From: a virus
Taxonomy: Duplodnaviria; Caudoviricetes
IMG/VR virus record: IMGVR_UViG_2765235997_000001
Coordinates: 23,089-87,088 of that record
Direction: 5' to 3' (one strand)
Length of the DNA stretch: 64,000 nucleotides
Positions within the stretch are counted from its first letter, which is position 1. The number at the start of each line of letters is the position of its first letter. The notes beneath the pieces are model-generated. The model was given only the letters and a program-made list of their open reading frames with translations, was not told where the DNA came from and searched no databases. A program made the translations under genes and the position numbers. Shown one piece after another: positions 3,774 through 48,004 of the stretch.

Positions 3774-3793
3774 GGTGTCCTCTTTCTCTGCAG

Positions 3794-4441: not shown

Positions 4442-4518
4442 GACGAATCGGCCCTCCAGGGGCTGTCGAAATGAGAAAGGCCGCCACCAGGGCGACCACG
4501 TTGCGAAGTGAGCGCGGA

Positions 4519-13203: not shown

Positions 13204-13204
13204 G

Positions 13205-26039: not shown

Positions 26040-26189
26040 TCAGTCGTGGCCGTTGAGCATGTGGTCTACGCAATCCGGGCAGTCCTCCCGGGGTGCGAGG
26101 TGCTTGTGCTGTTCGCGGCTGTCGTAGGCGTGCAGCCAGCACTGGGGGCACTCGCCTTTCGGCGGGTTCAAAGCGGTCTTGCTGGCCAT
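26040..26189 (-). CDS. Small Cys/His protein resembling Streptomyces plasmid pRL2-8 family (49 aa, absent from ORF track)
   Basis: NPPKGECPQCWLHAYDSREQHKHLAPREDCPDCVDHM; AGGAG RBS. Confidence 0.7.
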   Translation of the reverse strand: MASKTALNPPKGECPQCWLHAYDSREQHKHLAPREDCPDCVDHMLNGHD

Positions 26190-26198
26190 CAGGGACTC

Positions 26199-26711
26199 CT
26201 AGCTGTACGTCTGGTTGCGGGTGTTGGCGATGACGCCGCGGGTGGTGCTGGTGACGGTGCGGGAGTCGTGGTGGACGGTGCCGTGGAAGTGGTTGGTGAC
26301 CGGCGTCGGAGCGGCCTCAGCCACTTCCCTGGCGTTCTTCATCAGCCCCTTGAGCGCCAGCACGGGCAGCGTGAGGGCCACGGGAACGGCGACGACGCCG
26401 CCGCAGATCCAGGCGATGACCGTCTCGTTGGCGTGGCCCGAACTCCACAGGACGGCGCTGGCTGCTCCCCCAGCAGCAAGGGTGAGGATGCTGCTGGTGA
26501 GGATGGTGACGTTGCGGTCGACGGCCCGCTGGCTCATCGACGCCCGGCCGGGCTGCTCGACGGGCGGGGCTGATCCGACGACGGGGAGCGGCGTCTCGTC
26601 CCGGTGGTAGGTGGCCTGGCCGATCTCGTTGATGGCGGCCATGAGTTGGTCGGCGTTGCAGCGGATGGTGGTGTCGGGCTGCCCGGCGACGGGCTGCTCG
26701 GGCAGCTGCAT
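26199..26711 (-). CDS. Two-TM membrane protein, spread (Spd)-like
   Basis: Two hydrophobic helices then PVTNHFHGTV; downstream of traB. Confidence 0.6.
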   Translation of the reverse strand: MQLPEQPVAGQPDTTIRCNADQLMAAINEIGQATYHRDETPLPVVGSAPPVEQPGRASMSQRAVDRNVTILTSSILTLAAGGAASAVLWSSGHANETVIAWICGGVVAVPVALTLPVLALKGLMKNAREVAEAAPTPVTNHFHGTVHHDSRTVTSTTRGVIANTRNQTYS

Positions 26712-26720
26712 GGCGGTCTC

Positions 26721-26915
26721 CTAGTGGTTGTCGACGGCCCAGCGGCCGTTCACGGGGCGAATGGTGAAGCCGGGGCCGTTGACCCGGTTCGACACGGGGA
26801 AGATCACGCCGATGCCCAGGTCGTCGATGGTGTTGAGTAGCTCGGCAACCTGGGCGGCGTAGTCGGCAGCCCGGGTCTCGCGGCGGCGAAGCTCGGCAGG
26901 CGTTCCGGTGAACAC
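26721..26915 (-). CDS. Hypothetical protein (64 aa)
   Basis: AGGAGG RBS. Confidence 0.6.
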   Translation of the reverse strand: MFTGTPAELRRRETRAADYAAQVAELLNTIDDLGIGVIFPVSNRVNGPGFTIRPVNGRWAVDNH

Positions 26916-26924
26916 GAGGGCCTC

Positions 26925-27356
26925 CTAGGCGATGCGGAAGGTGTCGGGGCGCCGGGTTTCGTGGAGCACCCCGGTGTCGATGAGGTCGGTGACGTGGGCT
27001 GCAATCCAGGTGCGGGAGCGGCCGATTCGGGGTGCGGCTTCGGTGAGGTCGGCGGTGGTGATGCGGTCACGGCCGGCTGCGGTGCGTTCGGCGAGGAGGC
27101 CGTGGATGACGGCGGCGGCGCGTTCGGGGGTGGAGTGGGAGGGCCGATTCTCGGCGAGGTCGTCGCGGAAAAAGGCGAGAAGGCGGCCCTGCTGCCTGGC
27201 GGTGATGGGGTTGGTGGAGGCGAACGCCCAGTGGGGTGGGTAGCGAATTTCGAGGCGTGCGACGGTGGGTTCTGGGTCGTTGTCAACGGTGGTCCAGGTG
27301 CGGAGTGCGGCGGCTAGGACTTTGGCTCGACTCCCGTCCGTTTCGGGGCTTTTCAC
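26925..27356 (-). CDS. Protein with C-terminal wHTH resembling the TraB DNA-binding domain
   Basis: RIGRSRTWIAAHVTDLIDTGVLHETRRPDTFRI vs TraB RIGRARSWVSGALGDLSDAGIHLSETDQPGVYRL; AGGAG RBS before GTG 27356. Confidence 0.62.
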   Translation of the reverse strand: MKSPETDGSRAKVLAAALRTWTTVDNDPEPTVARLEIRYPPHWAFASTNPITARQQGRLLAFFRDDLAENRPSHSTPERAAAVIHGLLAERTAAGRDRITTADLTEAAPRIGRSRTWIAAHVTDLIDTGVLHETRRPDTFRIA

Positions 27357-27381
27357 GGGTTTGTCTCCTGTGTCAGGTCGA

Positions 27382-27652
27382 GGTGTCATCGGAGGGGCGG
27401 TCACGCGCGCGCACGCGCATGACCTATAGAGATCGGCCCTCCGGAGGGCTTCTGACACCCGTTCTGACACCTTCGCGGTGTCAGAACGGGTGCCAGACGG
27501 TGTCACCGCAGGTCAGAGGGGGTGTCAGCGCTGACACCTTGAGGTGTCAGACCTCGACCGGCACCGGGTACAGCAGCCGGTAGACCCCCGGCTGGTCCGT
27601 TTCTGACAGGTGAATCCCGGCGTCTGACAGGTCTCCCAGGGCTCCTGACACC
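27382..27652. repeat. Putative clt (cis-acting locus of transfer): TGACACC repeat array
   Basis: 9 exact copies on both strands (27382, 27453, 27465, 27477, 27499, 27521, 27532, 27543, 27646) at the traB 3' end. Confidence 0.8.
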
Positions 27653-29550
27653 CAGGAACGAGCCCTTCCGATGCGCTCCCCCTTACCGAACGGACCGAAG
27701 TCCTTCGGGCCGATGAACTCCCGTTCCTCGGCTCGGAACTCGTCGAGCATGACCATCAGGGCGTCCATGCCGGCCTCGGGGCTCTTCTCCTCCACGGGGG
27801 CCGGCGCTTGGCCGAACGACCAGGTCTCGGTAGGCGGGGCGATCTCCTGGTCGGCGTCGATGTCGGGCACGAACCCGTCGTCGTCGGGGTCGTCGCCGAC
27901 CATGGCGTCGATCTCGCGGTCGACCTGCTTTTCCAGCAGCGCTTTCTCGGCCTGTTCGTTCTCGTCGTTCGACATGACGATTGCCTCCTGTCGGGTGCTG
28001 TCACTGCTGGTCGGGGGCGTGTCAGCGTCGTATCGGGTGCGGTTGGCGTAGGCGTCACCGGCTGCGGCGGCGGTGACGGGGTCAATGGGGGTGCGGGGCA
28101 GGATGGATAGGGCCCCGGTGATCTGGTCGTCGTCGATGAGGTAGGTGCGCAGCGGGGTGGCGTAGCGGTCTTCGTCGACGCCGGGGGCGACGAGGTAGGC
28201 GTAGCCGGGTTTGCGGTTCTCCCATGCTTCGGGGCGGGCGCCGGCGTCGCGGACGTCGTCGGGGAGGGCCATGTCGGCGGTGGTGGAGCCCTTGACGCCG
28301 AAGCAGAGGACGCCGCCGAGTTGCTCGCGGACATCGGTCGGCATCGACGTGGCGGAGGGACGTTGGAGGCTGATGATGACGCTGATTCCGGCGGACCGGG
28401 CCTCCATGACGAGGCCTTCCATCTCGGTGCCGTTGCGGAAGAACTTGGCGGCCTCTTCGATCCACACGATCATGTACGGCATGCCGAGCTCGTCGAACGC
28501 GGCCGGGGTCCAGTTCTTGTAGCCGTGCCGGCCAAGGTGGTTGGCGCGGGCGGTAATGACCTGCGACAGGGCGTCGATCATCTCGTTGCCACCTGCCTCG
28601 GTCATCTCGACCCAGTCGAGGTGGGGCAGGAACGGAGCGAACGTCTGCTGCCCCTTGGAGGGGTCGACCGCCCAGACGATGGCATCGGGCTTGGTCAGCA
28701 CTTCGGCCATGGCGACGCTGATGCCGGTGGACTTCGCTGAGCCGTTCATGCCCGCGGCCAGGAAGTGGGTGGCGTTCCTCTTGGTGTGCGAGTCGAAGGG
28801 GAACCAAAGGACGGCCACTTCGCCGTCCTCGTAGATCCCGATGGCGATCGGGTCGGTAATGCTGCCGCCCGGGTTGGACGGGCCGGGCCAGATGGTGCTG
28901 GTTTTCAGTTCGTCCTTGGGGACGACGACGAGGGTGGCGCGGGCGGCGTCGTCGGGGTCGGGGATGACGCGGATGCTGTTCGGGGAGACGCCGAGCTCGC
29001 TGGCAATGTGCTTGATGCGGTTGCCGAGGTCGTCGGAGGTGACCTGCCCGGCGGCCAGTTGCAGGGGCACGGTGACTTTGTTCGGCTCGACCTTCGGCTT
29101 GCCGCGGAGGGCGACCTTGGCTTCGCCGATGGCCTTGACGAGGATCCCGGTCTCGGCGTTGCCGCCAGCCTTCTGGGGGTCGACGTTGACGCGGAGGGCC
29201 TGGCGGATGTTCCACGACCCGGCAGCCACCGACCCGCCGATGATGAGGGTGGAGGCGAGGGCCGGGTCGAACGGCCCGACGGCGGTCCCGACGACGAGGT
29301 ACGAGGTGCCGAGGCCGGTGGACAGGGTGGCGTGGATGCGCCGGCCGGGCTTGGTGCCCTCCCCCGCCCACCAGGTGGCGGCGGTCAGTACCCCTGCGGC
29401 GACGGTGAGGCCGATCGCGGCGGGCACGGAGTCGCCCCAGTAGTGGTGGGCGGCGAAGGTGGCGGGGACCTCGGCGGCGACTGTCAGCCAGGGCCTCATG
29501 CGGGGGTGCTTGATGGCCTTCCACAGGTCGGCCTTCTGGCTGTCAGCCAC
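27547..29550 (-). CDS. traB: TraB FtsK/SpoIIIE-like conjugative DNA translocase
   Basis: N-terminal TM helices, Walker A variant GMNGSAKST, Walker B MIVWIEE, ARSAGIS..LQR, C-terminal wHTH. Confidence 0.92.
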   Translation of the reverse strand: MADSQKADLWKAIKHPRMRPWLTVAAEVPATFAAHHYWGDSVPAAIGLTVAAGVLTAATWWAGEGTKPGRRIHATLSTGLGTSYLVVGTAVGPFDPALASTLIIGGSVAAGSWNIRQALRVNVDPQKAGGNAETGILVKAIGEAKVALRGKPKVEPNKVTVPLQLAAGQVTSDDLGNRIKHIASELGVSPNSIRVIPDPDDAARATLVVVPKDELKTSTIWPGPSNPGGSITDPIAIGIYEDGEVAVLWFPFDSHTKRNATHFLAAGMNGSAKSTGISVAMAEVLTKPDAIVWAVDPSKGQQTFAPFLPHLDWVEMTEAGGNEMIDALSQVITARANHLGRHGYKNWTPAAFDELGMPYMIVWIEEAAKFFRNGTEMEGLVMEARSAGISVIISLQRPSATSMPTDVREQLGGVLCFGVKGSTTADMALPDDVRDAGARPEAWENRKPGYAYLVAPGVDEDRYATPLRTYLIDDDQITGALSILPRTPIDPVTAAAAGDAYANRTRYDADTPPTSSDSTRQEAIVMSNDENEQAEKALLEKQVDREIDAMVGDDPDDDGFVPDIDADQEIAPPTETWSFGQAPAPVEEKSPEAGMDALMVMLDEFRAEEREFIGPKDFGPFGKGERIGRARSWVSGALGDLSDAGIHLSETDQPGVYRLLYPVPVEV

Positions 29551-29589
29551 GGGGTGTTCTCCTGGTTCGAGGTTGGTCGGGGATGTTGG

Positions 29590-30171
29590 TTAGCGCCAGC
29601 CGAACTTGGTGGGGCGCGGCTGCTGGGTGCGGCCCTTGCCGACCTTCCGCAGGTCGGACTCGTACTCACGCTCGAACGTGCCGTAGATCATGGCGGAGTA
29701 CTTCTGGATGTTCTTCTCGGCGGCGGCAACCTTCTTCAGCCACCGGGACACCCGGCGGGCGCGGGCGCGGGCTCCGTGGAGGCTGCCTCCTCCGTCGGGG
29801 ATGGTGCGGAGGACCGCTTCGAGGTGGTCGGCGTCCATGGCCCGCTCGGTGGCACGGTTCCGGGACTCCTTGCGGAGGTACTCGCAGAAGGCCCGGATGT
29901 CTTCGTTCGACATGAAGTCGGAACCGGGGATCTTTCCGCCGGTGCCGGGGCCGGCGCCCCCGCCGGGGGCTGTGCTACCGCCGGCCTTTCCGTTCACGAC
30001 GGTCTTGTTCACGGCGAGTCCGATGGACGGGTTGAAGCCGCCGCCGGTGCGGGTCTTCGAGTTGTCCACGCTGGTCGGCCGGGTGCCGTTGGTGGGTGCG
30101 GTACGAGGGCGGTGCGAGGTGGAGGGCTGGGGCCCTGCCCAGGTCCAGCCCTGGTCGGCGGGACTGCTCAT
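29590..30171 (-). CDS. traA: TraA-like plasmid transfer protein
   Basis: Directly upstream of traB; DFMSNEDIRAFCE...RARARRVSR...FEREY pattern. Confidence 0.7.
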   Translation of the reverse strand: MSSPADQGWTWAGPQPSTSHRPRTAPTNGTRPTSVDNSKTRTGGGFNPSIGLAVNKTVVNGKAGGSTAPGGGAGPGTGGKIPGSDFMSNEDIRAFCEYLRKESRNRATERAMDADHLEAVLRTIPDGGGSLHGARARARRVSRWLKKVAAAEKNIQKYSAMIYGTFEREYESDLRKVGKGRTQQPRPTKFGWR

Positions 30172-30222
30172 CTCAGTTCTCCTCGGGGTTGATTCGGGTG
30201 GTTGCAGAGCAGCGAGCGGTGC

Positions 30223-31614
30223 TCACTTCTGCTCCTCCGTGGAGGCGTTCTTAGCGGCGATAGCGGCCTGCTTGCGCGCGGCCGAAACGAAGGCGGGAGA
30301 GTCCCCCGCCCGGCGGGTTCCACGGACCCTCGGACCGGTCTTGCTGCCCCTGCCAGCACCAGGGGGCAGATGTGGAACACGCTGCGCGTTCGTGGTCTTG
30401 CTGAGGGTGCTGACGGGCTTGTTGAGGCGGGCCGCTTCCACCTTCGCCGCAGCCGTGTTCCGCATGCGGAGAATCTCGTCGGACTCCCCCGGCATGGCGC
30501 CGTCGACGTCGAGCTTGGCCTGCTTCCAAATGGCGGGAGTGATGGCCGTCTCACCGAGGTCCGCGGCGAGCTTCAGGGCGTGCGCGTGGACCCGGGGGAA
30601 CATCTGCTTGCGGTCGGCGTCCAGCTTGTTGGCGGCATCGCGTGCAGCGTTCTCCAGGTGGGCCTGCCGCTCGGCTTCGAACAGCTCCGCCGCGACCTTC
30701 TCTTCGGCCGCTCGCTTCGCCGCCTTCTTCGCCGCACGCCGCTCCCGCCGGGTGAGCACCCCGTCCCGCCGCCGGATCCGCCCGTGCTCGTGGAGGTCCC
30801 ACACCCCCGGGCCGGCGAGCGACGCGAACGCCGTACCGAAAGCGGTCGCCGGGTCGAACGCATCCAACCCGTGCTTCAAGTTGATCCCGGCGGCAATGAA
30901 CGCGAACACCCAGGCGACAGTGCGGTAGTGCCAGTGCGGCCGGTTCGCAGCAACAGCTGCCGCGGCACCCTTGGTCACGACAAGCGCGGCACCTTCGAGC
31001 ATCAGCGGGGCGATGACGAGCCAAGGCGCATCACGGTCCCAGAACGCGGCAATCTGCACGGGAAGGGCGACGATCGCGCAGACGGCGTAGAACGCGATGG
31101 CGTACTTCCGCCACGTCTTACTGGCCTTGGCGACGTCAGCTTCGGCGGCTGCCGCGGTCTGCTGCTGCTCCTGGTGGGCGCGCTCGTCGGCCTGCTGGCC
31201 CCGCTCGGCTGCTGCCCGCTTCCGCTCGGACTCGGCGATGCGGGCGTCCCGGGCCTTCTGCTCCTCGACGGCTCGGGCTTCGGCCTTGTCGTTGGCGAGC
31301 TTCAGCTTCCGGGCTTCCTCGGCCGCCTTCATCTCGGCAGCCTTGGCCTCACCCTCGGCCTTGAGGCGCAGGGCTTCGGCCTCAGCCTCTGCTCGGGCGC
31401 GCTGTTCTTCGGCGTCGGCGTAGGCCTTGGTGCGGATCGCGTCCGCTTCGGCCTGGGCGACGAGGTCGACGGCGGGGGTGGCCGGCTCGGGCTGTGCTTC
31501 GGGGGCGGTGGTGGCGACCGGCTCCTCGGCGGGCGCCGCGAGGAGCGTCTGCCACTCCGTGATCACGGGGATGCGGCGGCGGTGGCCGTTCACCTGGGGC
31601 GGGCTGGTCGTCAC
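30223..31614 (-). CDS. SpdB2-like / DUF2637 coiled-coil membrane protein
   Basis: Long Ala/Glu/Lys coiled coil, about four TM helices, basic tail. Confidence 0.7.
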   Translation of the reverse strand: MTTSPPQVNGHRRRIPVITEWQTLLAAPAEEPVATTAPEAQPEPATPAVDLVAQAEADAIRTKAYADAEEQRARAEAEAEALRLKAEGEAKAAEMKAAEEARKLKLANDKAEARAVEEQKARDARIAESERKRAAAERGQQADERAHQEQQQTAAAAEADVAKASKTWRKYAIAFYAVCAIVALPVQIAAFWDRDAPWLVIAPLMLEGAALVVTKGAAAAVAANRPHWHYRTVAWVFAFIAAGINLKHGLDAFDPATAFGTAFASLAGPGVWDLHEHGRIRRRDGVLTRRERRAAKKAAKRAAEEKVAAELFEAERQAHLENAARDAANKLDADRKQMFPRVHAHALKLAADLGETAITPAIWKQAKLDVDGAMPGESDEILRMRNTAAAKVEAARLNKPVSTLSKTTNAQRVPHLPPGAGRGSKTGPRVRGTRRAGDSPAFVSAARKQAAIAAKNASTEEQK

Positions 31615-31645
31615 GGCGAGTGGGTCCTTTCTCGTGGGGTGTTGG

Positions 31646-31825
31646 TCAGTTGCAGTTCGGGCAGTCGGGCTTGCCGCAGACCTCGATCTGGCCGAGCCCC
31701 AGGGCGGACGTGACCCGGTTGGCGACCTTTCCGCCCCGCTCCCCCGCGACCTTCTGGCCGACGGCGTGGATGGCGCGGGTGGCGGTCTCGGCGGTGCTGA
31801 CGCCGCTGTTCTCGCGTCGGGGCAT
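31646..31825 (-). CDS. Small protein with C-terminal CxxxxCxxC
   Basis: AAGGAG RBS; 59 aa. Confidence 0.6.
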   Translation of the reverse strand: MPRRENSGVSTAETATRAIHAVGQKVAGERGGKVANRVTSALGLGQIEVCGKPDCPNCN

Positions 31826-31836
31826 AGAGCTCTCCT

Positions 31837-32217
31837 TCATCGGTTGACAACGGGTCGGTGCATGTCGCGGTGCTGGAGGGTGACGGTGTACCCGTTGGCG
31901 ACGAGCCGGTCGGCGAGGGCCTGGGCGAAGACAGGGGCCCTGTGCCGGCCTCCCGCGCACCCGTCCGCGACAGTCACGGGGCCGGAGCTGGGGCCTGTAG
32001 CGAACGCGTTGACCGCGTCCGCCACAGCCACGACGAGGCTGGTGATGCCCGGAGTGCCCAGCACCGCCTGCCGCACCGGGTCATCGGCGGCCGTCATGTA
32101 CCGGAGCTCCGAGGACACGTGCGGGTCACGGAAGTGGTGGCGCAGGTCAAGGGTGATGTGCGCGGGCGGCGGCTCACCGTGCAGGTAGCCGAACGAGACG
32201 ATCTTGACGTCAGTCAT
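31837..32217 (-). CDS. Stand-alone RapZ C-terminal-like domain
   Basis: IVSFGY, DLRHHFRDP, GCAGGRHRA, HRD motifs. Confidence 0.82.
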   Translation of the reverse strand: MTDVKIVSFGYLHGEPPPAHITLDLRHHFRDPHVSSELRYMTAADDPVRQAVLGTPGITSLVVAVADAVNAFATGPSSGPVTVADGCAGGRHRAPVFAQALADRLVANGYTVTLQHRDMHRPVVNR

Positions 32218-32432
32218 GCGGAGCCGCCGGTGAGAGCCGCAGCAGCCTTGGCGACCTCGGCGTAGACGGCGGCAAGCCCGCCATAGACGGCAATGCGGGC
32301 ATGGTTGAACTCGTCGGTGCCGCGGTCGCTGGTGGCGTACCGGTCGGCCCGGTCGGCGTACTTCACGGCCTTCGCCAGGGCGTGGGCGCCGATCTCCTGC
32401 GGGGTCATGGCGGTCTCGGTCTGCGTGGTCAT
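32214..32432 (-). CDS. Hypothetical protein (72 aa)
   Basis: AAGGAG RBS; ATGA coupling. Confidence 0.6.
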   Translation of the reverse strand: MTTQTETAMTPQEIGAHALAKAVKYADRADRYATSDRGTDEFNHARIAVYGGLAAVYAEVAKAAAALTGGSA

Positions 32433-32449
32433 GACGGGGTCTCCTTGGG

Positions 32450-32842
32450 TCAGGTGGCGAGTGCGAGTGCGGCAATGCAGATGGCGGTGATGTGGCCGGC
32501 CTGGTCGACGTGGGCTGCCCCGCCGTTCTGCGCCCACCCGGTCTGCCGGGCGAACCGCATCCACCGGGCGACAGGCCACCGGCGGTCGATGAAGGCGTGA
32601 GAGCCGGTGATCCACAGCAGGGCTGCGGCGGCGGGGAGGAAGTCCAGGTCCAAGCCGAGGGCGATCCGCCCGGCGGCCAGGGCCAGCCCGGAAACCGCCA
32701 GATGCACCCCGGCGTGGGCCAGGTTTGCCCGCCACCCCGCCGCCCCGCAGTCGGCCTTGTGCTTGGCCTGGCGATCCGTCTGTCCCGGGTAGTCCGCGAG
32801 CAGATGGGCGACGTACAGCAGGATGAACAGGGTGGCGAACAC
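32450..32842 (-). CDS. DUF3307-like membrane protein
   Basis: AHLLADYPGQT, SHAFIDRR, VDQAGH. Confidence 0.8.
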   Translation of the reverse strand: MFATLFILLYVAHLLADYPGQTDRQAKHKADCGAAGWRANLAHAGVHLAVSGLALAAGRIALGLDLDFLPAAAALLWITGSHAFIDRRWPVARWMRFARQTGWAQNGGAAHVDQAGHITAICIAALALAT

Positions 32843-32851
32843 GGGGTGCCC

Positions 32852-33337
32852 CTACTGCCCGGTGATCAGGTTGAGTGCGGCGGTGACGGTGCCGGGGAGG
32901 GTGGTGCAGACAGGCACGTTGTGGCGGCGGGCCACGTAGGCCAGGTAGCGGTTCCGCTCCGGGTTGGGGCAGTCGTCGGGAATCCCGAGGACCGCCCGGC
33001 CGCTGGTGGCGTCCAACCCGAACTCGACGTTGGTCGTCATGCCGGGCATCGTCTTCAGGTCCCGGGGGATCCAGAAGAGGATCGCGGTGGCAGCGGCGCG
33101 GGCGTCGGTCTCCCAGTCGACCTGCGTCTCGTACCGGTCGGCCCGCACCCCGTTGCGGGACTCGGGGCTCAGTACAGTCAAGGTCTGCGGGCCGGCCCAC
33201 TGCTCGGTCAGGATCTTGAGGGCGGTGGGCCGCCACGACGGAACCGGGTTGCTCTTGTCCGGAGTCGGCCCCGCCAAGAACACCGACGGGCCGACGGGAA
33301 GGGGCTCGCGGGCCATGACCAGCTTGACGATGCTCAT
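32852..33337 (-). CDS. Nucleoside 2-deoxyribosyltransferase-like protein
   Basis: VFLAGP..W, QVDWE, ILFWIPR, TNVEFG. Confidence 0.8.
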   Translation of the reverse strand: MSIVKLVMAREPLPVGPSVFLAGPTPDKSNPVPSWRPTALKILTEQWAGPQTLTVLSPESRNGVRADRYETQVDWETDARAAATAILFWIPRDLKTMPGMTTNVEFGLDATSGRAVLGIPDDCPNPERNRYLAYVARRHNVPVCTTLPGTVTAALNLITGQ

Positions 33338-33702
33338 GCCCCTGCCCCCTTCGCAGCGGCGCGGGCCTCGTGCTGCGGGGTCCACGGCAAGGGCAGGTCG
33401 TCGCCGTCCCGCCGGGGGACGATGTGAACGTGCAGGTGGAACACGGACTGCGTCGCCTCGACGCCCTTGCTGGTGATGAGGTTCGCGGCCGGCAGCTCGG
33501 CCATCAGCTCGGCTGCCCGCCCCATCACCGCCCTGGTGACCTCAATGTCGACACCGGCGTCCTCAACATGGACACGCGGCAGAACGAGCACATGGCCTCC
33601 GTTTACCCCGCCGCGAGGGCGGATCGCGAGCGCATCGGGCCACTCGCGGACAATCGTGGCCGGGGCGTCGCCGGCGGCAATGGCGCAGAAGACACAGGAC
33701 AT
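33334..33702 (-). CDS. HIT-family nucleotide hydrolase
   Basis: CVFC, GHVLVLPR, QSVFHLHVHIVPR. Confidence 0.92.
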   Translation of the reverse strand: MSCVFCAIAAGDAPATIVREWPDALAIRPRGGVNGGHVLVLPRVHVEDAGVDIEVTRAVMGRAAELMAELPAANLITSKGVEATQSVFHLHVHIVPRRDGDDLPLPWTPQHEARAAAKGAGA

Positions 33703-33741
33703 GCGGGGCTCCTAGAGCAGGTGATGGGGCGGGCTGCCAGG

Positions 33742-33954
33742 TCAGGCGTGGTTGGGCTTCCAGGTTCCGTTGTCCAGCTGGTTCAGCTCGTCGAGGTTCT
33801 CGTCGGCGGCCCGCCGCATGGACTCGGCGAGGCCGTGCTGGCCGTTCGCGGCGGCGTCACGCTGCGCCTGCCGGCTGTTCTGGATGTCGGCGGTGATGTC
33901 GGCGCGGGTCTGCTCGGCGGACTGGCTCTTGAAGAAGTGACGGGCGCTGGCCAT
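33742..33954 (-). CDS. Hypothetical protein (70 aa)
   Basis: AAGGAG RBS. Confidence 0.65.
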   Translation of the reverse strand: MASARHFFKSQSAEQTRADITADIQNSRQAQRDAAANGQHGLAESMRRAADENLDELNQLDNGTWKPNHA

Positions 33955-34049
33955 GGGGTTCTCCTTGGGTTGGTGTCGGGTCCGGGTGACTCCCGGGCCA
34001 CTCCGCCGCCACCAACCCGGGGTTGGGGACGACAGGGCAGGCCGGAGGG

Positions 34050-34352
34050 TCAGGCCGCAGCCAAGGTGGACAGGCCGTCCAGCTCATCGAGCTCGTCCAG
34101 CAGGCGGGGCCCGAACGGCTGCCCGGCGTCGTGCTCAGCCGCCAGACCACGCAGCCAGTGCCGGGTGCTGTGGTCACCACGGGCCGCGACGTACCGGGTG
34201 ACGATCTCCCCCGGCGACAGGCCCTCCGCCTCCTCCCACGTCACCTGGACGTCGGAGGTGAGGAGCGCGGCCCGCAGGTTGTGGATCTCGGCGGACACGG
34301 TGGCGAGGTCGCCGGAGAACAGGTCGGTGACGGTCGAGACGTAAGGAGACAT
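34050..34352 (-). CDS. Hypothetical protein (100 aa)
   Basis: Tiles operon. Confidence 0.6.
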   Translation of the reverse strand: MSPYVSTVTDLFSGDLATVSAEIHNLRAALLTSDVQVTWEEAEGLSPGEIVTRYVAARGDHSTRHWLRGLAAEHDAGQPFGPRLLDELDELDGLSTLAAA

Positions 34353-34458
34353 GGGGGTGCCTATCTGTGAGGTGATGGGGTGAAGAAGAGGTGAGGTGGA
34401 GAGCCGCGCCCGGCCGGCCGAGGGATGTCGCCGACGGGGCGCGGCGGACTGTGGGGTG

Positions 34459-34593
34459 CTACCGGCGGCGGGCTTCCTGCCGGGCCATCGCGGCCCGAAC
34501 ATCAGCACCAGCCTGATAATCGCGGCGGCAAGCATCCGGGGTAGCGGGCTCCGCGACGATCGTGTTCTCGCGCGGCTGCTCGGCCGTAGCCAT
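34459..34593 (-). CDS. Small peptide (44 aa)
   Basis: TGATG-coupled; MATAEQPRENTIVAEPATPDACRRDY. Confidence 0.5.
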   Translation of the reverse strand: MATAEQPRENTIVAEPATPDACRRDYQAGADVRAAMARQEARRR

Positions 34594-34760
34594 CAGAGAC
34601 GCCGCTGGGCGATCAGCCGGCGACGGGCCGGGGTGTCGGCGGGGAGGGTGACCGACTCCTGGGAGACCACGGCCGGGCGGCGGCGGTACGACGCTTTCTC
34701 GTGGGCCTCCCGGTCCGCCTCCGACATCGGGGCAGCCGGCGGAGTGATCGGCGGGGTCAT
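34593..34760 (-). CDS. Small peptide (55 aa)
   Basis: ATGA-coupled with GAGG RBS. Confidence 0.5.
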   Translation of the reverse strand: MTPPITPPAAPMSEADREAHEKASYRRRPAVVSQESVTLPADTPARRRLIAQRRL

Positions 34761-34972
34761 GCCGCCACCTCGCTCGGGGAGGTCGGGTTGCTCAGGCGGT
34801 CCGTCACGGCCGACTCGGGGATCCGAATCGAACCGCCGCCGCCCTCGATGGCGACTCCGGGCTCTATCGGCTTCCCGTACCTGACGGCGGGAAGGTGGCC
34901 GTCGGCAATCCACCGGTAGACGGTCGCGGGATGAACTCTCAGGCGGTCGGCGACCTCCTTCACACGCAGCAT
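34757..34972 (-). CDS. Excisionase-like HTH (HTH_17) protein heading the transfer operon
   Basis: LRVKEVADRLRVHPATVYRWIADGHLPA. Confidence 0.85.
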   Translation of the reverse strand: MLRVKEVADRLRVHPATVYRWIADGHLPAVRYGKPIEPGVAIEGGGGSIRIPESAVTDRLSNPTSPSEVAA

Positions 34973-35134
34973 CAGGTGCTCCCATCGTTGGCTTGATGCG
35001 ATGTCGCAACCATACAGCTTTATAGCTTAAGGCGGCAAGGTTGCGGGTCCGTGCGTGTCCAATGCGGCACCCGCCGCTCTATGCATCAAGGCTTTAAGGT
35101 GGAGGTCAGAGGCTTGCCAGCAAGGAAGGGACCA

Positions 35135-35665
35135 ATGAAAAAAAACTGGAGCAGCACCTCACTGCCCTACGTGCTGCCCAAGTCAGCCGGCCAGGCAGAC
35201 ACGTGGTCGGACGACACCTCAGGGCAGCAGACATCGCAGCACCTAATAGAGGTTGCCGAGGTCGCCCCACCAGCGCGGATCGCTAGCGCCCTCAGCCTTC
35301 AGCAGGGCGAGCGAGCCGTGGTCCGGAGGCGCCTCATGAAGCGAGGCAACCGCCCGGTCGAACTCACGGACTCGTATTACCCGCTCGCCATCGCCGCCGG
35401 AACGGCCCTTGCCGACAAGCGGAAGATCAAAGGCGGGGCGCCAACGCTGCTCGCGGAACTCGGGTACCGACCTCGACACGTAGTCGAAGAGGTTGAGAGC
35501 AGGGAGCCGAGCGCCAGCGAAATCTCATCCTTGCAACTGGAGCCTGGCGAGCCCGTCCTCATCCTGTGCCGTCTCACAACATCCCAGGACGGCAACCCCA
35601 TGGAGGCGAGCCTCATGACCATGCGACGAGGAGCCATCCTCCGGTACGAAATCGAGGTGGCCTGA
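35135..35665 (+). CDS. UTRA-domain-only protein (GntR effector domain without HTH)
   Basis: VVRRRL...PVELTDSYYP...KIKGGAPTLLAELGY, paralogous to the next gene's C-terminal domain. Confidence 0.8.
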   Translation: MKKNWSSTSLPYVLPKSAGQADTWSDDTSGQQTSQHLIEVAEVAPPARIASALSLQQGERAVVRRRLMKRGNRPVELTDSYYPLAIAAGTALADKRKIKGGAPTLLAELGYRPRHVVEEVESREPSASEISSLQLEPGEPVLILCRLTTSQDGNPMEASLMTMRRGAILRYEIEVA

Positions 35666-35666
35666 C

Positions 35667-36428
35667 ATGGCCGAACGCAAGGACACGAGGCCGGTCGGCG
35701 AGCGAGTCGCCGCGAACATCCGAGCCCTTGTCATGTCTGGCGAATGGGAGCCAGGCTTCAAGATCCCCAGCACCGACGAGCTGAGGACTGAACACAAGAC
35801 CTCCAACGTAACCATCCAGCGAGCCCTGGGGCTCCTCAAGACGGAAGGCCTGCTGGAGGGCAAACCCGGCAAGGGCGTCTTCGTGCGGGAAGTCGCTCCT
35901 CAGGCCATCGCCCCAGCCTCGTTCATGGCGCCTTCGGAGTCGGGCCAGCCATATCGCTGGATCTCGGAGGCGGCGAAGCACGGACGGCGGGCCAGTAACC
36001 GAATCCTCGATGTGACGGAGACTGTTCCACCAAGGCGAGTGCGCGAAATCCTCGGACTACCTGCGGGGGGCTTGGCCGTGCTGCGATCCCGCGTCGGTCT
36101 CCTTGACGACGAGCCTGCGGAACTGGTCGATTCCTACTACCCCATCGAGCTGGCCCGCGGCACGCGCCTGGCAGACCGGCGCAAAATCCCCGGCGGCTCC
36201 CCCACCCTTCTCGCGGAGATGGGGTATCCACCGAGGGAGCAGGAAGACGAGGTGGCCGCCCGGCCGGCAACCAGCCGAGAGTTCATCCACTTGGAGCTCC
36301 CTGCCGACATCGCCGTCATCGAGGTGTTCCGCGTGGTCTACAGCGACGACCGAAGGCCGATCGAGGTCACAACCCTCGCGAAGCCGTCGCACCTCTTCAA
36401 GATGGGCTACCACCTGCCCGTCCAGTGA
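35667..36428 (+). CDS. GntR/HutC-family repressor (KorSA/TraR-like)
   Basis: GntR wHTH (PGFKIPS..EL...TIQRAL..L..EG...GKGVFV) plus UTRA; divergent from transfer operon. Confidence 0.9.
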   Translation: MAERKDTRPVGERVAANIRALVMSGEWEPGFKIPSTDELRTEHKTSNVTIQRALGLLKTEGLLEGKPGKGVFVREVAPQAIAPASFMAPSESGQPYRWISEAAKHGRRASNRILDVTETVPPRRVREILGLPAGGLAVLRSRVGLLDDEPAELVDSYYPIELARGTRLADRRKIPGGSPTLLAEMGYPPREQEDEVAARPATSREFIHLELPADIAVIEVFRVVYSDDRRPIEVTTLAKPSHLFKMGYHLPVQ

Positions 36429-36434
36429 GTCCCA

Positions 36435-36469
36435 CCAAGCCCTCCGGCGCGGATTCCGGAGGGCTTTGG
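36435..36469 (+). terminator. Terminator-like hairpin
   Basis: AAGCCCTCCGG-N8-CCGGAGGGCTT after GntR stop. Confidence 0.7.
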
Positions 36470-36576
36470 CGTGCGCCGACACAGCGACACCTTGATACAG
36501 ATGCGAATAAGGTCTACCGTCAGTGCAAGACCCCTCTACGGAGCGATGCCGGGCATCCGTATGTCGAGAGGACAAC

Positions 36577-37110
36577 ATGACGGACGAGACCACCAGCGAG
36601 CGCACCGCGCTCTACCGCCTGTTCGACGCCGACCAGCAGTTGCTCTACGTCGGGATCACGAAAGACCCAAAGAAGCGTTGGCGCACTCACGCGCAGTGGG
36701 CACGCTCCAGTTGGTGGCCTTCCGTCACCCGGAAGGTCGTCGAGTGGTTCCCGGACCGCGAGGCGGCAGACCTTGCGGAAACCGCAGCCATCAACTCGGA
36801 GAAGCCCCTGCATAACCTGGCCAAACGCGAGAGGCCGGGCGGGCCAGCCCCCTACTTCTGCCCGGAGATCGACTGGGGGTGGCAGGAGAAGCGGAGCATC
36901 ACCGAACAGGTAGCCGACATCCTGCGGCGAGAGATCCAGGAAGGGCGTTACGCCGTCGGTGACCCGATGCCTACGCGCCTTGATCTGAAGGAGCGTTTTG
37001 GCATGGCGCCCGCCACTGCGCAGAAGTCCCTCAGCATCCTCGCCAAGGAAGGGCTGACCCACCAGCCCGGCCCGAAGCGGCGCTTCATCTGCGGCCCTCC
37101 GTCCTCCTGA
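36577..37110 (+). CDS. GIY-YIG nuclease domain fused to a GntR-type wHTH
   Basis: ALYRLF...LLYVGIT...RW...E..AI..E.P.HN, then VADILRREIQEGRY..GDPMPT..L..RFG.A..T. Confidence 0.8.
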   Translation: MTDETTSERTALYRLFDADQQLLYVGITKDPKKRWRTHAQWARSSWWPSVTRKVVEWFPDREAADLAETAAINSEKPLHNLAKRERPGGPAPYFCPEIDWGWQEKRSITEQVADILRREIQEGRYAVGDPMPTRLDLKERFGMAPATAQKSLSILAKEGLTHQPGPKRRFICGPPSS

Positions 37111-37249
37111 AGGCCCTGACAGCAGCCAGCGGCGACCGCCATTGGATCGGCTGCGGGCATGAAAAAGCCGGGCGCTGTAACGCCCGGCCTGTTTCACCAG
37201 CGGTACCACCCGCTGGTCAGTGAGTTCCACTCTCATCAAGGAGTCCTCG

Positions 37250-37648
37250 ATGGACATCGTACAGACTTCCCCTGCCCTCGTCTCCCCGGTCTTGTCGGCC
37301 CCGGTTCCTCCGCAGCCGCCGGCCCCGGCCGCCCCGACCGCGCATCCGACGTCGTGCCCGTCGTGGTGCAAGGACCGGAACTATCCGGCGGGTCACAACT
37401 CGTCGCCGCGTGACACCGCCCACCGGTCGCGTGCTCTGGAGCTGAAGCTGTCGGGTGAGACGGCGACGGTGACGTTGGTCCGTGCGGAGTTGTTCCGCCT
37501 GGACGAGCTGGACGACGTCGGCGAGACGGTGTTGTACGTGCAGGGGGAGGACGAGCAGGGCTCGTCGGGTCCTGAGGTGGAGATGTTCGTGGCGAACCTG
37601 ATCGCGTTCACGGAGAACGTGCGGATCCTGCGCGGACAGATGGGCTGA
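37250..37648 (+). CDS. DUF6907-like protein
   Basis: AAGGAG RBS; CPSWC...H...H motif. Confidence 0.6.
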   Translation: MDIVQTSPALVSPVLSAPVPPQPPAPAAPTAHPTSCPSWCKDRNYPAGHNSSPRDTAHRSRALELKLSGETATVTLVRAELFRLDELDDVGETVLYVQGEDEQGSSGPEVEMFVANLIAFTENVRILRGQMG

Positions 37649-37783
37649 TCAGCCCCTGCGGTTTCTCACGGCCGGGCAGCTGGTGCTGCCCGGCCGTTTC
37701 CAGATCGGCGGGCGGGTCCCGCGTTCCCTCAGGAGTGCTGTGTTTGTGCTGCTCGGCGTTGGTCGTTGCGGTGGAGGTTGTGG

Positions 37784-39007
37784 ATGAGTAGCGAGTTGCG
37801 CCGTCAGTTGCGTGAGGCGTTGGGGCCGGAGATCAAGGGGTTGCAGCGGGCTGTGGCGTTGGAGATCGCCGACGACGCCCGGTACGACGACGGGTGGCGG
37901 TTCGATGCGGCCCGGGGCCGGCGCAGCAAGGTGCGCTTGGCGGACCTGGTGCGGTGGACGGGGGCGAAGAACGAGCGGGTGGTCCGGGATGCGCTGCGGA
38001 GCTTGTCGCTGGCCGGCTGGGAGTTCCGGCTGCCGATCGGTGTGGGTACGGATGGGCGCCCGATGTATGCGATTCCTGGGGTGGCGATGCAGTACCGGGT
38101 GCCGGACTTCAGGGCGCCGGTCGCCGTCACCCCGGAAGGGACAGCCACCACTGGCCCTTCGGTTGAGCAAGGGACAGTCACGGCTGGCCCTATGGATCCG
38201 GAAGGGCCAGTGGTGGCTGCACAAGGGCCAGTCACCACTGCGCAAGAGCCAGCCGTGACTGCAGAAGGGCCAGTGGTGACTGGCCCCCCTTCTCCTGTTC
38301 TTCTCCTTGCTTCTCCTCAAGACTCTCCCTCCTCCTCCGGGCCGTTGCCGTCTGCGGGTGATGAGCCGGCCGCCGAGGGAGGAGGCGGTGGCGATTTCCT
38401 TCATCAAAACGAGGACCGAGGTGCCGCCACCGGTACGCCGGAACTCCACCCGCAGGCCGAGCCGTTGGTCGCCGCCCTGGACTTCCGTGGCCGCCCGCCG
38501 GGGTCGAAGCAACGTCGGCGGTTGGTCGCTTCGGTCGCTGCCGCTTTGGACGCCGGCTGGGTGGAGCAGGACTTGAAGACGTACCTCGACCTCGGGGGCG
38601 CGGCGGTGAACTCGGCTGCGGCCGTGTACGCGCACCGGCTGGCCGCGGATGAGCTCCCGGACCCGGCAACCTTCCGGGAGGCTGCGAGACGACCCCTGGA
38701 GGGCACGGACGCGGTTGTAGACGGGTGGATGACCCTGTCCCGGCAGCTGGGTGACGAGCGGGAGCATGCCCCGGCCGGGAACCGGGCGTCAGGGCGCCGC
38801 GGGTACAGCGGGCCAGCACGCCCCAACACTGTCTGGGATCGCATCGCAGCGGACGCCGCGAACGGCGTGTCACCCCCGGGCGCCGAGAAGTACAAGCACT
38901 GCGGCACCTGCGACCCGGTCACCCGGATGCGTAAAGGGGATGACTGGACCGGGCAGGGGAAGCACAGCCCATGCGGCCGTTGCCACCCGTCAATGCAGTT
39001 CAGCTAG
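37784..39007 (+). CDS. Putative replication initiator (second), with internal iterons
   Basis: N-terminal wHTH-like region, repeat-encoded linker, C-terminal CxxC...CxxCHP; lambda O-like layout. Confidence 0.6.
   Translation: MSSELRRQLREALGPEIKGLQRAVALEIADDARYDDGWRFDAARGRRSKVRLADLVRWTGAKNERVVRDALRSLSLAGWEFRLPIGVGTDGRPMYAIPGVAMQYRVPDFRAPVAVTPEGTATTGPSVEQGTVTAGPMDPEGPVVAAQGPVTTAQEPAVTAEGPVVTGPPSPVLLLASPQDSPSSSGPLPSAGDEPAAEGGGGGDFLHQNEDRGAATGTPELHPQAEPLVAALDFRGRPPGSKQRRRLVASVAAALDAGWVEQDLKTYLDLGGAAVNSAAAVYAHRLAADELPDPATFREAARRPLEGTDAVVDGWMTLSRQLGDEREHAPAGNRASGRRGYSGPARPNTVWDRIAADAANGVSPPGAEKYKHCGTCDPVTRMRKGDDWTGQGKHSPCGRCHPSMQFS
38135..38338. repeat. Iteron array and pyrimidine tract (putative origin)
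   Basis: Six AAGGG(A/C)CAG-N6-CTG units (one with a mismatch) at 38135, 38168, 38201, 38222, 38243, 38264, then C/T-rich tract. Confidence 0.72.
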
Positions 39008-39085
39008 CAAAACAGTCAGAACTCGGGACGCGGGCACCTATTCCGGGACAACATCAGATCCACACTCGCCCTTCGAGAGGACAGC

Positions 39086-39739
39086 ATGACCATCAAACCC
39101 ATAGAAACCCGGTATGCCAGCCACCGGTTCCGTTCCCGCCTCGAAGCCCGCTGGGCCGTCTTCTTCGACACTCTCGGCCTCCGTTGGGAGTACGAACCAC
39201 AGGGGTACCTCGTCGGCCCGGAACGTAAGCCCTACCTTCCCGACTTCTGGCTCCCCAAGGAGCGGCTGTGGGTCGAGGTCAAGGGGTCCGAGGAGCACTT
39301 GGACGTCGAACTGCTCGTCCACGCGGCCTCACTCGACACCGGCCTGCCTCGGACCACCGAGCCGCACGTCGTCAGCGAGCACGAAGCCCGCCTGCTGGTC
39401 CTCGGGCCGCATGGGCGCGGCGTCCACGGGCTCATCGACAAGGCCAGCAAGGAGCACGTGGGGTACGTGCTGCCCATCCACACGGCCCTGACCATCCGCA
39501 AGGGCGACGTGTTCCAGAGCCACGCCTGGTTCTCGCAGAACGGCGTGACGGTCGACCCCACCGAGGATCGAATCGCCGACGACTCCGTGGATATCGACTG
39601 GGAGGGGCGCGGTCACCGCTGGGGCAACCTCGTTGGCGGCGGCGGCATGATCTCCGAAGACAAGTACGACGAGACAGTCGTCAACGCGTACCAGAGCGCC
39701 ATTTCAGCCCGCTTCGAGCACGGTCAGAGCGGAGCCTGA
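39086..39739 (+). CDS. PD-(D/E)XK-family nuclease
   Basis: FRSRLEARWA..F...WEYEP...YLPDFWL...VEVKG. Confidence 0.8.
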   Translation: MTIKPIETRYASHRFRSRLEARWAVFFDTLGLRWEYEPQGYLVGPERKPYLPDFWLPKERLWVEVKGSEEHLDVELLVHAASLDTGLPRTTEPHVVSEHEARLLVLGPHGRGVHGLIDKASKEHVGYVLPIHTALTIRKGDVFQSHAWFSQNGVTVDPTEDRIADDSVDIDWEGRGHRWGNLVGGGGMISEDKYDETVVNAYQSAISARFEHGQSGA

Positions 39740-39749
39740 CCTGCACGCC

Positions 39750-39780
39750 AGGCCGCCCCCGCAGGATTCGGGGGCGGCCT
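39750..39780 (+). terminator. Terminator hairpin
   Basis: AGGCCGCCCCCG-N7-CGGGGGCGGCCT followed by TCTTC. Confidence 0.7.
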
Positions 39781-47261: not shown

Positions 47262-48004
47262 GACGCCTCCTCGACGATCTCGGCGTCCGGGATGTTCTCC
47301 TCGGCTTTCAGGCGGGCCAGGGTGCGGGCGGACGCTTCCCGGATCCGCTGTTCCTGCGCAGCCCGCTCCTCAACGGTCTGCTGCGGCTCACCGGCGGCCT
47401 CACGGATACGGGCGGCATGCGGCTTCGGCATCGGCTTGCCGAGAGGGAACTTCGCGCTGGCCCGCCCCGTCTTGCACGGGTGACCCATCGCGGCGGAGCA
47501 CACCGGGCACTCGACACCGAGCGGGCCAGCCCGGCGGACGCCGTCGGCAAGGGACTCCTCGTCCGAGTCCGGGACAGTTCGGTTGCCCTGCCACCCGCGG
47601 TCCTCCAGCTGCCGCATGAAGCCGGCCGACGGGCCACCCTCCAGGGCGAGCCGGTTCGGGGGCGGGGCGACCTGCCCGGAGGCGATGGCCTGCACCTGGC
47701 CCCGGTAGCGGGCCAGGTACTCGTGCGGCGTCTCGTCGGCGATCGGCTGGTACTGAAAGTTCTCCAGCCTTGCGGAACGGATCTTCGAACGGAGAGTCCG
47801 GACGTGGTGCGGCAGGATCCACAGGCGGGCGTCCGGGTCCTTCGGCGGAGTTGAGTAGTACGCGGCAACAGCGGCCTTGGCGTCCTGGTCGAGGGGTACA
47901 TCGTGGAGGGCGGCGGCCCAGGCCATGGCTGCGGCCTCGGAGGGCTTGCGGTTGTCGAACGCCGCGCAGTGACCGAGCAGCGAGGCGGCTTCCTTCTTGT
48001 TCAC
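47258..48004 (-). CDS. Probable helicase loader/inhibitor-like replication accessory protein with Zn finger
   Basis: EAASLL..AAFDNR...AW..AL...A..AV..YY N-domain; directly downstream of rep. Confidence 0.6.
   Translation of the reverse strand: MNKKEAASLLGHCAAFDNRKPSEAAAMAWAAALHDVPLDQDAKAAVAAYYSTPPKDPDARLWILPHHVRTLRSKIRSARLENFQYQPIADETPHEYLARYRGQVQAIASGQVAPPPNRLALEGGPSAGFMRQLEDRGWQGNRTVPDSDEESLADGVRRAGPLGVECPVCSAAMGHPCKTGRASAKFPLGKPMPKPHAARIREAAGEPQQTVEERAAQEQRIREASARTLARLKAEENIPDAEIVEEAS

Follow-up and report, generated by a model that had tools for sequence, protein, structure and literature searches.

A conserved TraB-type transfer cassette in a virion-encoding, integrating Streptomyces phage, and its plausible role in conjugative spread

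Introduction

Can a temperate phage that encodes a complete virion also carry, as a stable part of its genome, the double-stranded DNA (dsDNA) transfer apparatus of a Streptomyces plasmid? This question is raised by a locus in the tailed-phage record IMGVR_UViG_2765235997_000001 of IMG/VR. The record has a length of 87,088 bp, and its bases 23089-87088 form the 64-kb stretch analysed here, referred to as the window; positions are given in window coordinates unless the record is named. A first-pass annotation, made from the sequence alone, had described a TraB transfer module built into a virion-encoding, integrating phage. In the model reported for TraB and its target site clt, a membrane-anchored FtsK-like hexamer recognises short repeats by a winged helix-turn-helix (wHTH) domain and pumps unprocessed dsDNA (PMC3583192). 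The analysis described below confirmed the observation and, judged by gene content and order, the conjugative reading is plausible and structurally well supported.

The TraB cassette and its carrier

The cassette is centred on a TraB of 667 amino acids (aa), a predicted membrane-anchored FtsK-like dsDNA translocase with a C-terminal wHTH domain. This protein scored 832.5 bits against the NCBIfam equivalog NF041214, for which the cut-off is 800, and its match covers positions 2-635 of the 639 in the profile. Its identity to the TraB annotated in pCQ4 and pCQ3 is 71% over 100% of the length; with the TraB proteins of pSN22, pWTY27, pJV1 and many other small plasmids it is 35-38%. Family membership was settled by NCBIfam because Pfam, in which nothing matched at E ≤ 0.01, would have missed TraB on its own. 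When aligned with the TraB proteins of pWTY27 and pSN22, the window protein was found to retain the N-terminal hydrophobic region (a segment was placed at residues 41-59 by the transmembrane scan), the Walker B-like VWIEEAAKF and the C-terminal wHTH, whose recognition-helix region R-[SP]-W-[VI]-S is common to all three.

The small partner TraA is encoded upstream of traB, as in pSN22-type plasmids, with 39 bp between its stop codon and the start of traB. It scored 103.3 bits against NF041213 (cut-off 80), is 64% identical to the traA product of pCQ4 and has homologues in all 10 relatives compared. On the other side of traB lies p154, a free-standing paralogue of the TraB C-terminal wHTH: its C-terminus matches positions 561-632 of the 639 in NF041214 (E 3e-10), it is 55% identical to the product of the open reading frame (ORF) that follows traB in pCQ4, and homologues were found in 9 of the 10 relatives. 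The coordinates of these genes (Table 1) place traA and traB between the early and late arms of the phage, where the first-pass annotation had put them, and the transfer operon shares its strand with the late genes on its left, again as first described.

The carrier is a temperate tailed phage: one contiguous element holds the genes for terminase, portal, capsid, tail, lysis and integrase. The record is listed in IMG/VR as a provirus, and CheckV rates its completeness at 100%. The late arm within the window encodes the head genes, and beyond the left edge of the window come a 1478-aa ORF of tape-measure size, further tail genes and a lysin of the Amidase_2 type. The right arm, on the minus strand at 42-61 kb, carries a replication initiator, a cytosine methyltransferase, a WhiB protein, a polymerase-exonuclease-like gene and an exonuclease VIII homologue, followed by the integrase, which closes the window on the right and is the single PF00589 match in the entire 87-kb record. 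The stop codon of this integrase forms the last three bases of the record, which was therefore cut at a gene boundary, with the att sites outside the view; no tRNA gene was found in the window as an att candidate, and no terminal repeats were found in the 87,088-bp record. The 413-aa protein P0003 of the window is recorded on a 211,212-bp contig, which is compatible with an element whose record was cut from a larger replicon. The GC content is about 68-70% along the whole stretch, and gene calls were based on third-position GC (GC3). By its gene content, the window covers the larger part of a temperate Streptomyces prophage of siphovirus type, ~87 kb long.

The clt-like array at the traB stop codon

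The clt-like repeat array noticed at first pass was recovered by a word search. The heptamer TGACACC occurs 14 times in the window; nine of these copies, in both orientations and with nested inverted repeats, fall in 27382-27652 (271 bp), and seven lie within the 97 bp of 27453-27549, at the traB stop codon. An even spread would give about 0.06 copies per 271 bp. The signal is one of clustering, since the window-wide count is not enriched over shuffled sequences (14 against 10.1 +/- 3.0). TGACACC is the DC1 repeat of the clt of pWTY27, which was footprinted by the TraB-type protein of that plasmid (named TraA there), and the transfer of pWTY27 is reported to require one tra gene and clt, the latter in cis (PMC3583192). 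The repeats are present in the pWTY27 sequence itself, with the same word and at the same position as in the window. In 9 of the 10 relatives the densest TGACACC cluster of the record or locus begins within ~110 bp of the 3' end of traB; the exception is pCQ4, in which it lies upstream of traB. Clustered short repeats at the 3' end of a tra gene are what characterises a clt, and the array is thus a candidate clt.

Conservation across relatives and between virion modules

Nine further IMG/VR records encode a TraB with 61-94% identity to that of the window, and ten loci were examined in species-representative genomes. The order of early genes, tra module and late genes is collinear in the independent assemblies G001/G010, G002, G003 and G008. 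In G003 the collinearity with the window element extends over the virion genes, the tra module and parts of the early arm. The tra module, the early genes and the accessory arm are also shared by G001, G002 and G008, whose virion module is unrelated to that of the window (portal phrog_533, terminase phrog_2, capsid phrog_267). The cassette thus occurs with the window's type of virion module, here called A, in G003 and in G011 (8.5 kb downstream of traB), with the unrelated module B in G001, G002, G005 and G008, and beside a third virion module in pCQ4. The plasmid unnamed2 of strain NBC_01005 combines the window's virion module (90% aa identity for the terminase, 82% for the portal and 84% for the capsid) with ParAB, and no TraB homologue was found on it. 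As a separate observation, NZ_CP108705.1, a ParAB plasmid with the window's virion module and without TraB, encodes at 839-5639 proteins of 717 and 649 aa beside a homologue of the window's p170, roughly where tra genes would be; neither has a Pfam match. NC_017833.1, a 40.9-kb plasmid of Streptomyces sp. FR1, appeared among both the portal matches and the TraB-like FtsK matches, and is a candidate for a further phage/TraB hybrid.

The survey of TraB-terminase linkage suggested with the first-pass annotation held for part of the set. Terminase or portal genes were confirmed on the same record in seven of the nine IMG/VR relatives, G007 giving a weak match only and G006 none. Among the ten loci of the species-representative genomes, four (G010, G011, G014 and G017) have a terminase at most ~12 kb downstream of traB; two others are 2.6-kb contigs (L043 and L047) and are uninformative, and the remaining four, G012 with its frameshifted traB among them, gave no terminase with the queries used. 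Searches of the TraB-bearing contigs or records of G006, G007, G013, G015 and G016 with terminase queries of types A and B gave no match, which is a limit of the queries rather than absence. The pCQ4-type terminase query had no match in G001, G002, G005 and G008, and a weak one in G007 (E 1.5e-5). When a phage collection was searched with TraB, 59 records matched, none covering at least 80% of the query, and no Streptomyces phage was among them.

The genes of the cassette are under constraint. In comparisons with the four closest relatives, the ratio of non-synonymous to synonymous substitution rates (dN/dS) was 0.13-0.24 for TraB, 0.20-0.51 for TraA and 0.16-0.25 for p154, and traB is under purifying selection. 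The first-pass annotation had named separate excision and misassembly as explanations that would undo its claim; the collinear order in independent assemblies, with two virion modules, does not bear out an artefact. It had also reported no second integrase and no flanking repeats, which agrees with the single tyrosine integrase and with a search for direct repeats around the tra segment that returned nothing beyond one 14-bp match at chance level. The tra module is an integral and conserved part of the phage, neither a separately excising insert nor a misassembly.

A possible route of transfer

We consider it probable that a transfer cassette of the pSN22/pWTY27 type is stably kept and selected in this ~87-kb prophage, and that TraB pumps the excised circle from hypha to hypha. 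Gene identities, the repeat array, conservation, selection and the two forms of siblings, integrated and circular, were observed; the regulation, the coupling to excision and the actual transfer of an 87-kb genome are the parts of this best explanation that we infer. A GntR/UTRA repressor, possibly responsive to a ligand and placed divergently from the transfer operon, would govern expression. The operon would run from the HTH_17 gene through the membrane proteins to TraA, TraB, clt, the wHTH paralogue and a further membrane protein. After excision of the element as a circle by the phage tyrosine integrase, TraB hexamers at the hyphal membrane would recognise the TGACACC array by their C-terminal winged helix and pump the dsDNA phage genome into the adjoining hypha, where it may re-integrate or enter the lytic cycle.

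A weak hint of operon expression comes from four RNA sequencing libraries of one study, where the operon is covered by contigs from a relative with ~90% identity; in two of the four runs a single contig of 8.0-8.1 kb spans 26212-34625, from near the operon head to p170, with a k-mer depth of 68-87. Stretches without such contigs do not indicate silence. None of the sequencing runs searched reached half of the words sampled from 26900-31700; the highest share was 0.24.

Several points weigh against this explanation. The att sites and host flanks lie beyond the trimmed ends of the record and are not visible. The transfer of the excised circle by TraB, and a choice between lysis and transfer, are extrapolated from plasmid systems, and TraB and clt may not suffice for a large replicon, because pZL12 needs two adjacent genes as well. 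No Spd protein is recognisable with Pfam or NCBIfam, the Pfam FtsK_SpoIIIE family matches TraB at an E value of 0.17 only, and the Walker A motif of TraB has the non-canonical form GSAKS, which remains a caveat. The traB gene is frameshifted in 2 of 18 relatives, G008 (L026-L030, 32361-34354) and G012 (L048, 10001-11987), and in the latter, a complete chromosome, no virion genes of types A, B or C were found within 120 kb; the G012 locus may be a decayed remnant. The RNA contigs, lastly, may reflect carry-over of DNA.

A bolder extension of hypha-to-hypha transfer can be offered tentatively, as possible rather than probable. In this extension, a distinct TraB-clt subfamily, confined almost entirely to phage-type elements, would make integrated Streptomyces prophages "integrative conjugative viruses" whose 87-kb DNA, once released from the chromosome by the phage integrase, can be either packaged or pumped by TraB, the second route being independent of receptors. 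The same tentative proposal would bound the subfamily by at least 58% identity to the window TraB, against at most ~42% for the TraB of ordinary plasmids; it would have the wHTH paralogue and the GntR/UTRA sensors arbitrate between packaging and pumping; and it would have the tra cassette swapped as a unit between unrelated virion modules.

Alternative explanations

The alternative that survives best, although we judge it unlikely, is that the cassette works inside one mycelium and not between strains, spreading or segregating phage DNA through cross-walls or to spore compartments. In its favour, TraB is one of the FtsK/SpoIIIE-type pumps (PMC3583192), it is accompanied by membrane proteins, and circular or plasmid relatives such as G002, pCQ4 with its ParAB and the NBC_01005 plasmid with the same virion module would need distribution in a mycelium. 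The record itself, however, is classed as an integrated provirus and has no match to ParA-type (PF01656) or ParB (PF02195) domains, and an integrated prophage is inherited with the chromosome. The TraB/clt pair of plasmids is, moreover, reported to mediate intermycelial transfer (PMC3583192), and the two roles are compatible with each other.

It is improbable that the cassette is inert cargo, the remnant of a pWTY27- or pSN22-like plasmid, or of an actinomycete integrative and conjugative element (AICE), captured by an ancestral phage. The region does look like the backbone of a small conjugative plasmid, with its HTH and GntR genes, membrane protein, traA, traB and clt, the accessory genes around the core differ between relatives, and the two frameshifted copies and the unusual Walker A could be taken as signs of decay. 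The Walker A of the window TraB reads GMNGSAKS (28700-28740), an A replacing the consensus G of the canonical GSGKS. Among the 11 elements scanned, that of the window included, five have GSAKS, five have GSGKS and one was unmatched by the search pattern, and we read the GSAKS form as a probably tolerated polymorphism. Which of the two forms occurs co-varies with the residue that precedes the first glycine by three positions. Against inert cargo stand the purifying selection on TraB, TraA and p154, an uninterrupted traB in 16 of the 18 relatives, the clt array kept in 9 of 10, a position that stays constant across virion-module swaps, and the lack of flanking repeats or of an integrase of its own.

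We also give little credence to the view that the element is an extrachromosomal plasmid-prophage like pCQ4 or pZL12 and owes its "provirus" class to an artefact of how the contig was trimmed. Circular plasmids of 85-92 kb are indeed the closest relatives with annotation, the end of the record coincides with a gene boundary, and the element has a small resolvase and possibly a second initiator. The sibling G002 is an 81-kb contig without host DNA, circularly permuted relative to the window record: both contig ends interrupt the tape-measure gene (one carries residues 1-903, the other ~1144-2051), and at 23.7-30.4 kb, where the two arms join, it carries a 447-aa integrase and a 417-aa regulator (L031-L035), which suggests a free circular or concatemeric form. 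Two siblings, on the other hand, are chromosomal. G001 is 100% identical to part of the 6.9-Mb scaffold G010, in which a low-GC block lies between 24-bp direct repeats (22 of 24 positions matching) at extract positions 11994-12017 and 97636-97659; the prophage so delimited has 85.7 kb, its tyrosine integrase abuts the first repeat copy, and the IMG/VR record G001 had lost this integrase by trimming. No tRNA genes were found in 120 kb around this prophage. G011 sits at 0.6 Mb of a 1.28-Mb contig. Both states, integration and a free circle or concatemer, are thus represented among the siblings; for the window element, its provirus class, the recording of P0003 on the 211,212-bp contig and the lack of ParA/ParB domains speak for integration.

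A nested AICE or other separate insert was rejected because neither flanking direct repeats nor a second tyrosine integrase were found.

Regulators, membrane proteins and neighbouring genes

The divergent KorSA/TraR-like GntR gene of the first-pass annotation was found as described: a putative GntR+UTRA repressor of the HutC type, 253 aa long, is encoded divergently from the tra operon, in the position of TraR, KorA or KorSA and with the layout seen in pSN22, pWTY27 and pCQ4. It is preceded on the same strand by a UTRA-only protein. The first gene of the minus-strand operon encodes an HTH_17 protein with 47% identity over 32 aa to the product of the HTH gene beside GntR in pWTY27. The intergenic region between the divergent genes (34973-35100) is AT-rich and contains repeated GCTT(T)AAGG words, which are candidate operators for the GntR proteins. 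A promoter and terminator scan of 24.5-40.5 kb stayed at chance level, with no promoters and eight terminator-like sites against 6.7 expected.

Table 1. Features of the window, with coordinates in window positions; wHTH, winged helix-turn-helix; GC3, third-position GC
Feature	Position	Strand	Evidence or remark
Late arm in window: terL, portal, protease, scaffold, major capsid, glycosyltransferase-like	1786..8448	-	PHROGs 9, 104, 193, 4708, 10, 26352
Major capsid protein	2817-3773	-	PHROG match
Portal	5252-6697	-	PHROG match
Terminase large subunit	6694-8448	-	PHROG match
p170, last larger gene of the tra operon	26199..26711	-	GC3 0.92; membrane protein with two hydrophobic segments
p64, small protein	26721..26915	-	GC3 0.89; homologues in G001 and G003, 78-89% identical
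p154, wHTH paralogue	26925..27389	-	Inferred start ATG 27389
clt-like array	27382..27652		Word search
TraB	27547-29550	-	NF041214
TraA	29590-30171	-	NF041213
P0002	30223..31614	-	Sequence and transmembrane scan
RapZ C-terminal-domain-like, DUF3307 membrane, nucleoside 2-deoxyribosyltransferase-like, HIT hydrolase	31837..33702	-	PF22740 2.2e-24, PF11750 2.2e-9, PF15891 2.2e-13, PF01230 4.9e-12
HTH_17 protein (excisionase/MerR-like)	34757..34972	-	PF12728 1.3e-13
UTRA-only protein, 204 aa	35051-35665	+	PF07702
GntR+UTRA putative repressor	35667-36428	+	PF00392 7.6e-15, PF07702 5e-18
GIY-YIG nuclease fused to GntR-type HTH, and DUF6907 protein	36523..37648	+	PF01541 3.3e-10, PF00392 2.5e-9; PF21848 1.1e-7
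P0003	37766-39007	+	AlphaFold2 model
Iteron-like 21/33-bp direct and inverted repeats inside P0003	38123-38286		Repeat search
Nuclease-like protein, 217 aa, weak endonuclease I-type N-terminus	39086..39739	+	PF05367 E 0.0028, below cut-off
Replication initiator of the phage (early arm)	48001..49116	-	phrog_8064 2.8e-69, phrog_3171 2.7e-48
Tyrosine integrase, 560 aa	62318..64000	+	phrog_1 5.6e-37; PF00589 31.7 bits (cut-off 27.1)

The "spd-like membrane genes" of the first-pass annotation stood as membrane genes and fell as spd-like. The membrane proteins of the module are P0002, p170 and a DUF3307 protein, and neither P0002 nor p170 matched Spd or DUF2637 families in Pfam or NCBIfam even at E values up to 5. 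P0002 is a 463-aa protein with a coiled-coil N-terminus, a hydrophobic core and a basic tail, and homologues occur in G001, G002, G003, G008 and L012. Its position approximates that of the DUF2637 protein of pWTY27, which lies two genes upstream of traA, and a BLAST comparison between the two was negative. The sole Spd link is a protein-atlas lead of 0.87 to clusters named "putative SpdB2"; with this lead and no family match, the assignment of P0002 as an Spd protein was rejected, and by position it is a possible analogue of SpdB2. For p170, which likewise has no Pfam or NCBIfam family match, homologues with 47-54% identity adjoin traB in 6 of 10 relatives, and another is found in the NBC_01005 plasmid.

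Upstream of P0002 in the operon, the genes for the RapZ-C-like, DUF3307, deoxyribosyltransferase-like and HIT proteins vary among relatives. The RapZ-C-like gene is probably shorter than its ORF (31837-32475), because the first 86 aa are Arg/Pro-rich and non-coding in look and the domain begins from an internal Met at ~32217. Outside the window, the accessory arm of the record (record positions 1-12500) encodes an ATP-dependent DNA ligase, also present in pCQ4, a GmrSD_C nuclease, a PASTA-domain protein and, at record position 7093-7749, a small serine resolvase with HTH_7.

P0003 and the supposed extra replication gene

An "extra rep with iterons" had also been proposed for the region to the right of the regulators. 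The gene and its repeats are real: in P0003, mismatches against relatives number 69 at codon position 3 and 29 and 40 at the other two, as in a genuine gene, and 21/33-bp repeats lie inside it. The stretch encoded by these repeats appears in the AlphaFold2 model as a disordered linker that joins an N-terminal wHTH to a confidently modelled helical domain, after which comes a C-terminal zinc ribbon. The Rep homology did not stand. No Rep family was found for P0003 by Pfam, NCBIfam or tblastn on PLSDB (72,556 plasmids); a profile search of PDB sequences gave a zinc-ribbon match at E 0.91 only; the model returned nothing at E ≤ 0.001 in Foldseek, with generic wHTH regulators only; and BLAST against the RepA and prim-pol proteins of pWTY27 gave no support. 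There are 222 Streptomyces homologues, and all source names among the 120 listed read "hypothetical protein". With no homology or fold link, P0003 was not accepted as a replication initiator and is retained as a wHTH gene with iteron-like internal repeats; the "rep" label is unproven and lies outside the conserved core, since there is no Rep link and the gene was found in only 2 of 10 relatives (G001 and G008). By architecture only, a wHTH with repeats within the gene, P0003 is a candidate initiator, unproven; it resembles initiators whose origin sits within their own gene.

Significance and comparison with known systems

If the cassette works, temperate Streptomyces phages gain a second, virion-free route of spread, by which receptor-based resistance and extracellular barriers are bypassed and chromosomal DNA could be mobilised as it is by plasmids. 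The boundary between prophages and integrative conjugative elements (ICEs) would be blurred in bacteria that are important for antibiotic gene clusters. Profiles for relaxases and type IV secretion systems (T4SS) are not expected to register TraB-type systems, and because of this TraB-carrying phage elements are probably undercounted. Screens of phage-plasmids for conjugation are described as using profiles of this kind (Pfeifer et al., 2021).

Among known systems, AICEs of the pSAM2, SLP1 and pMEA300 type are alike in being chromosomal, in excision by a tyrosine integrase, in TraB/FtsK-type dsDNA transfer and in a GntR repressor. As generally described, however, they measure ~9-24 kb, keep int, rep and tra close together and carry no virion genes, whereas in the window element the integrase and traB are 33 kb apart, separated by phage early genes, a complete virion is encoded, and no repeats flank the tra segment. 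More distant parallels come from another phylum: Phi1207.3 of Streptococcus pyogenes, to which the term "conjugative prophage" is applied, is a prophage reported to be capable of conjugal transfer (PMC4260502), and in phage-ICE tandems a phage integrase is reported to drive the co-transfer of phage and ICE units (PMC13651849). As described, these are single-strand T4SS-type systems or two-element tandems, unlike a one-protein dsDNA pump within a phage.

The small TraB plasmids pSN22 and pWTY27 share with the window the order GntR / traA traB clt and the domain layout of TraB, and pWTY27 has the identical 7-bp clt repeat. Compared with such plasmids (10-15 kb), a group that also takes in pJV1 and pSVH1, the carrier in the window is an 87-kb virus, with an extra free-standing wHTH paralogue and no recognisable Spd genes. 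In pWTY27 (NC_013667.2), the region just after traB-clt (10642-13281) was seen to hold a gene annotated in RefSeq as "phage major capsid protein" and a recombinase.

The closest likeness is to the 85-kb circular Streptomyces plasmids pCQ4 (NC_019307.1) and pCQ3 (NC_013449.1). The former carries the same cassette of traA, traB and wHTH paralogue with a divergent GntR, and joins terminase, portal, capsid and tyrosine integrase in one replicon, as the window element does, its phage virion genes being annotated as a full set; pCQ3 is known here from its TraB match alone, the cassette and virion genes having been read in pCQ4. The differences are that both were deposited as circular plasmids, and that pCQ4 has ParA/ParB and an unrelated virion module, sharing only five or six non-tra genes with the window element. 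The laboratory of pCQ3 and pCQ4 reportedly published a "plasmid-phage" paper in 2012. Within the phage-plasmid class fall pCQ4, the NBC_01005 plasmid and probably G002; the window record, a provirus without ParA/ParB, falls outside it.

The precedent of pZL12, already cited at first pass, holds by the title of its description and by the papers that cite it: in pZL12/phiZL12, a single molecule serves as a conjugative replicon and also as a phage that forms plaques (Zhong et al., 2010, J Bacteriol 192:3747), and its transfer is reported to depend on a major tra gene together with two neighbouring genes (PMC3583192). Compared by description only, pZL12 is extrachromosomal and has ParAB, whereas the window element is integrated and lacks it; pCQ4 adds a second precedent by gene content. 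A literature search turned up no account of a Streptomyces prophage that carries TraB and is chromosomally integrated, although supplementary tables of phage-plasmid surveys may list some. The principle of joining virion and conjugative transfer genes in one molecule therefore has its precedents in pZL12 and pCQ4, and what is new here is the chromosomally integrated, ParAB-less form and a well-documented integrated family that carries it.

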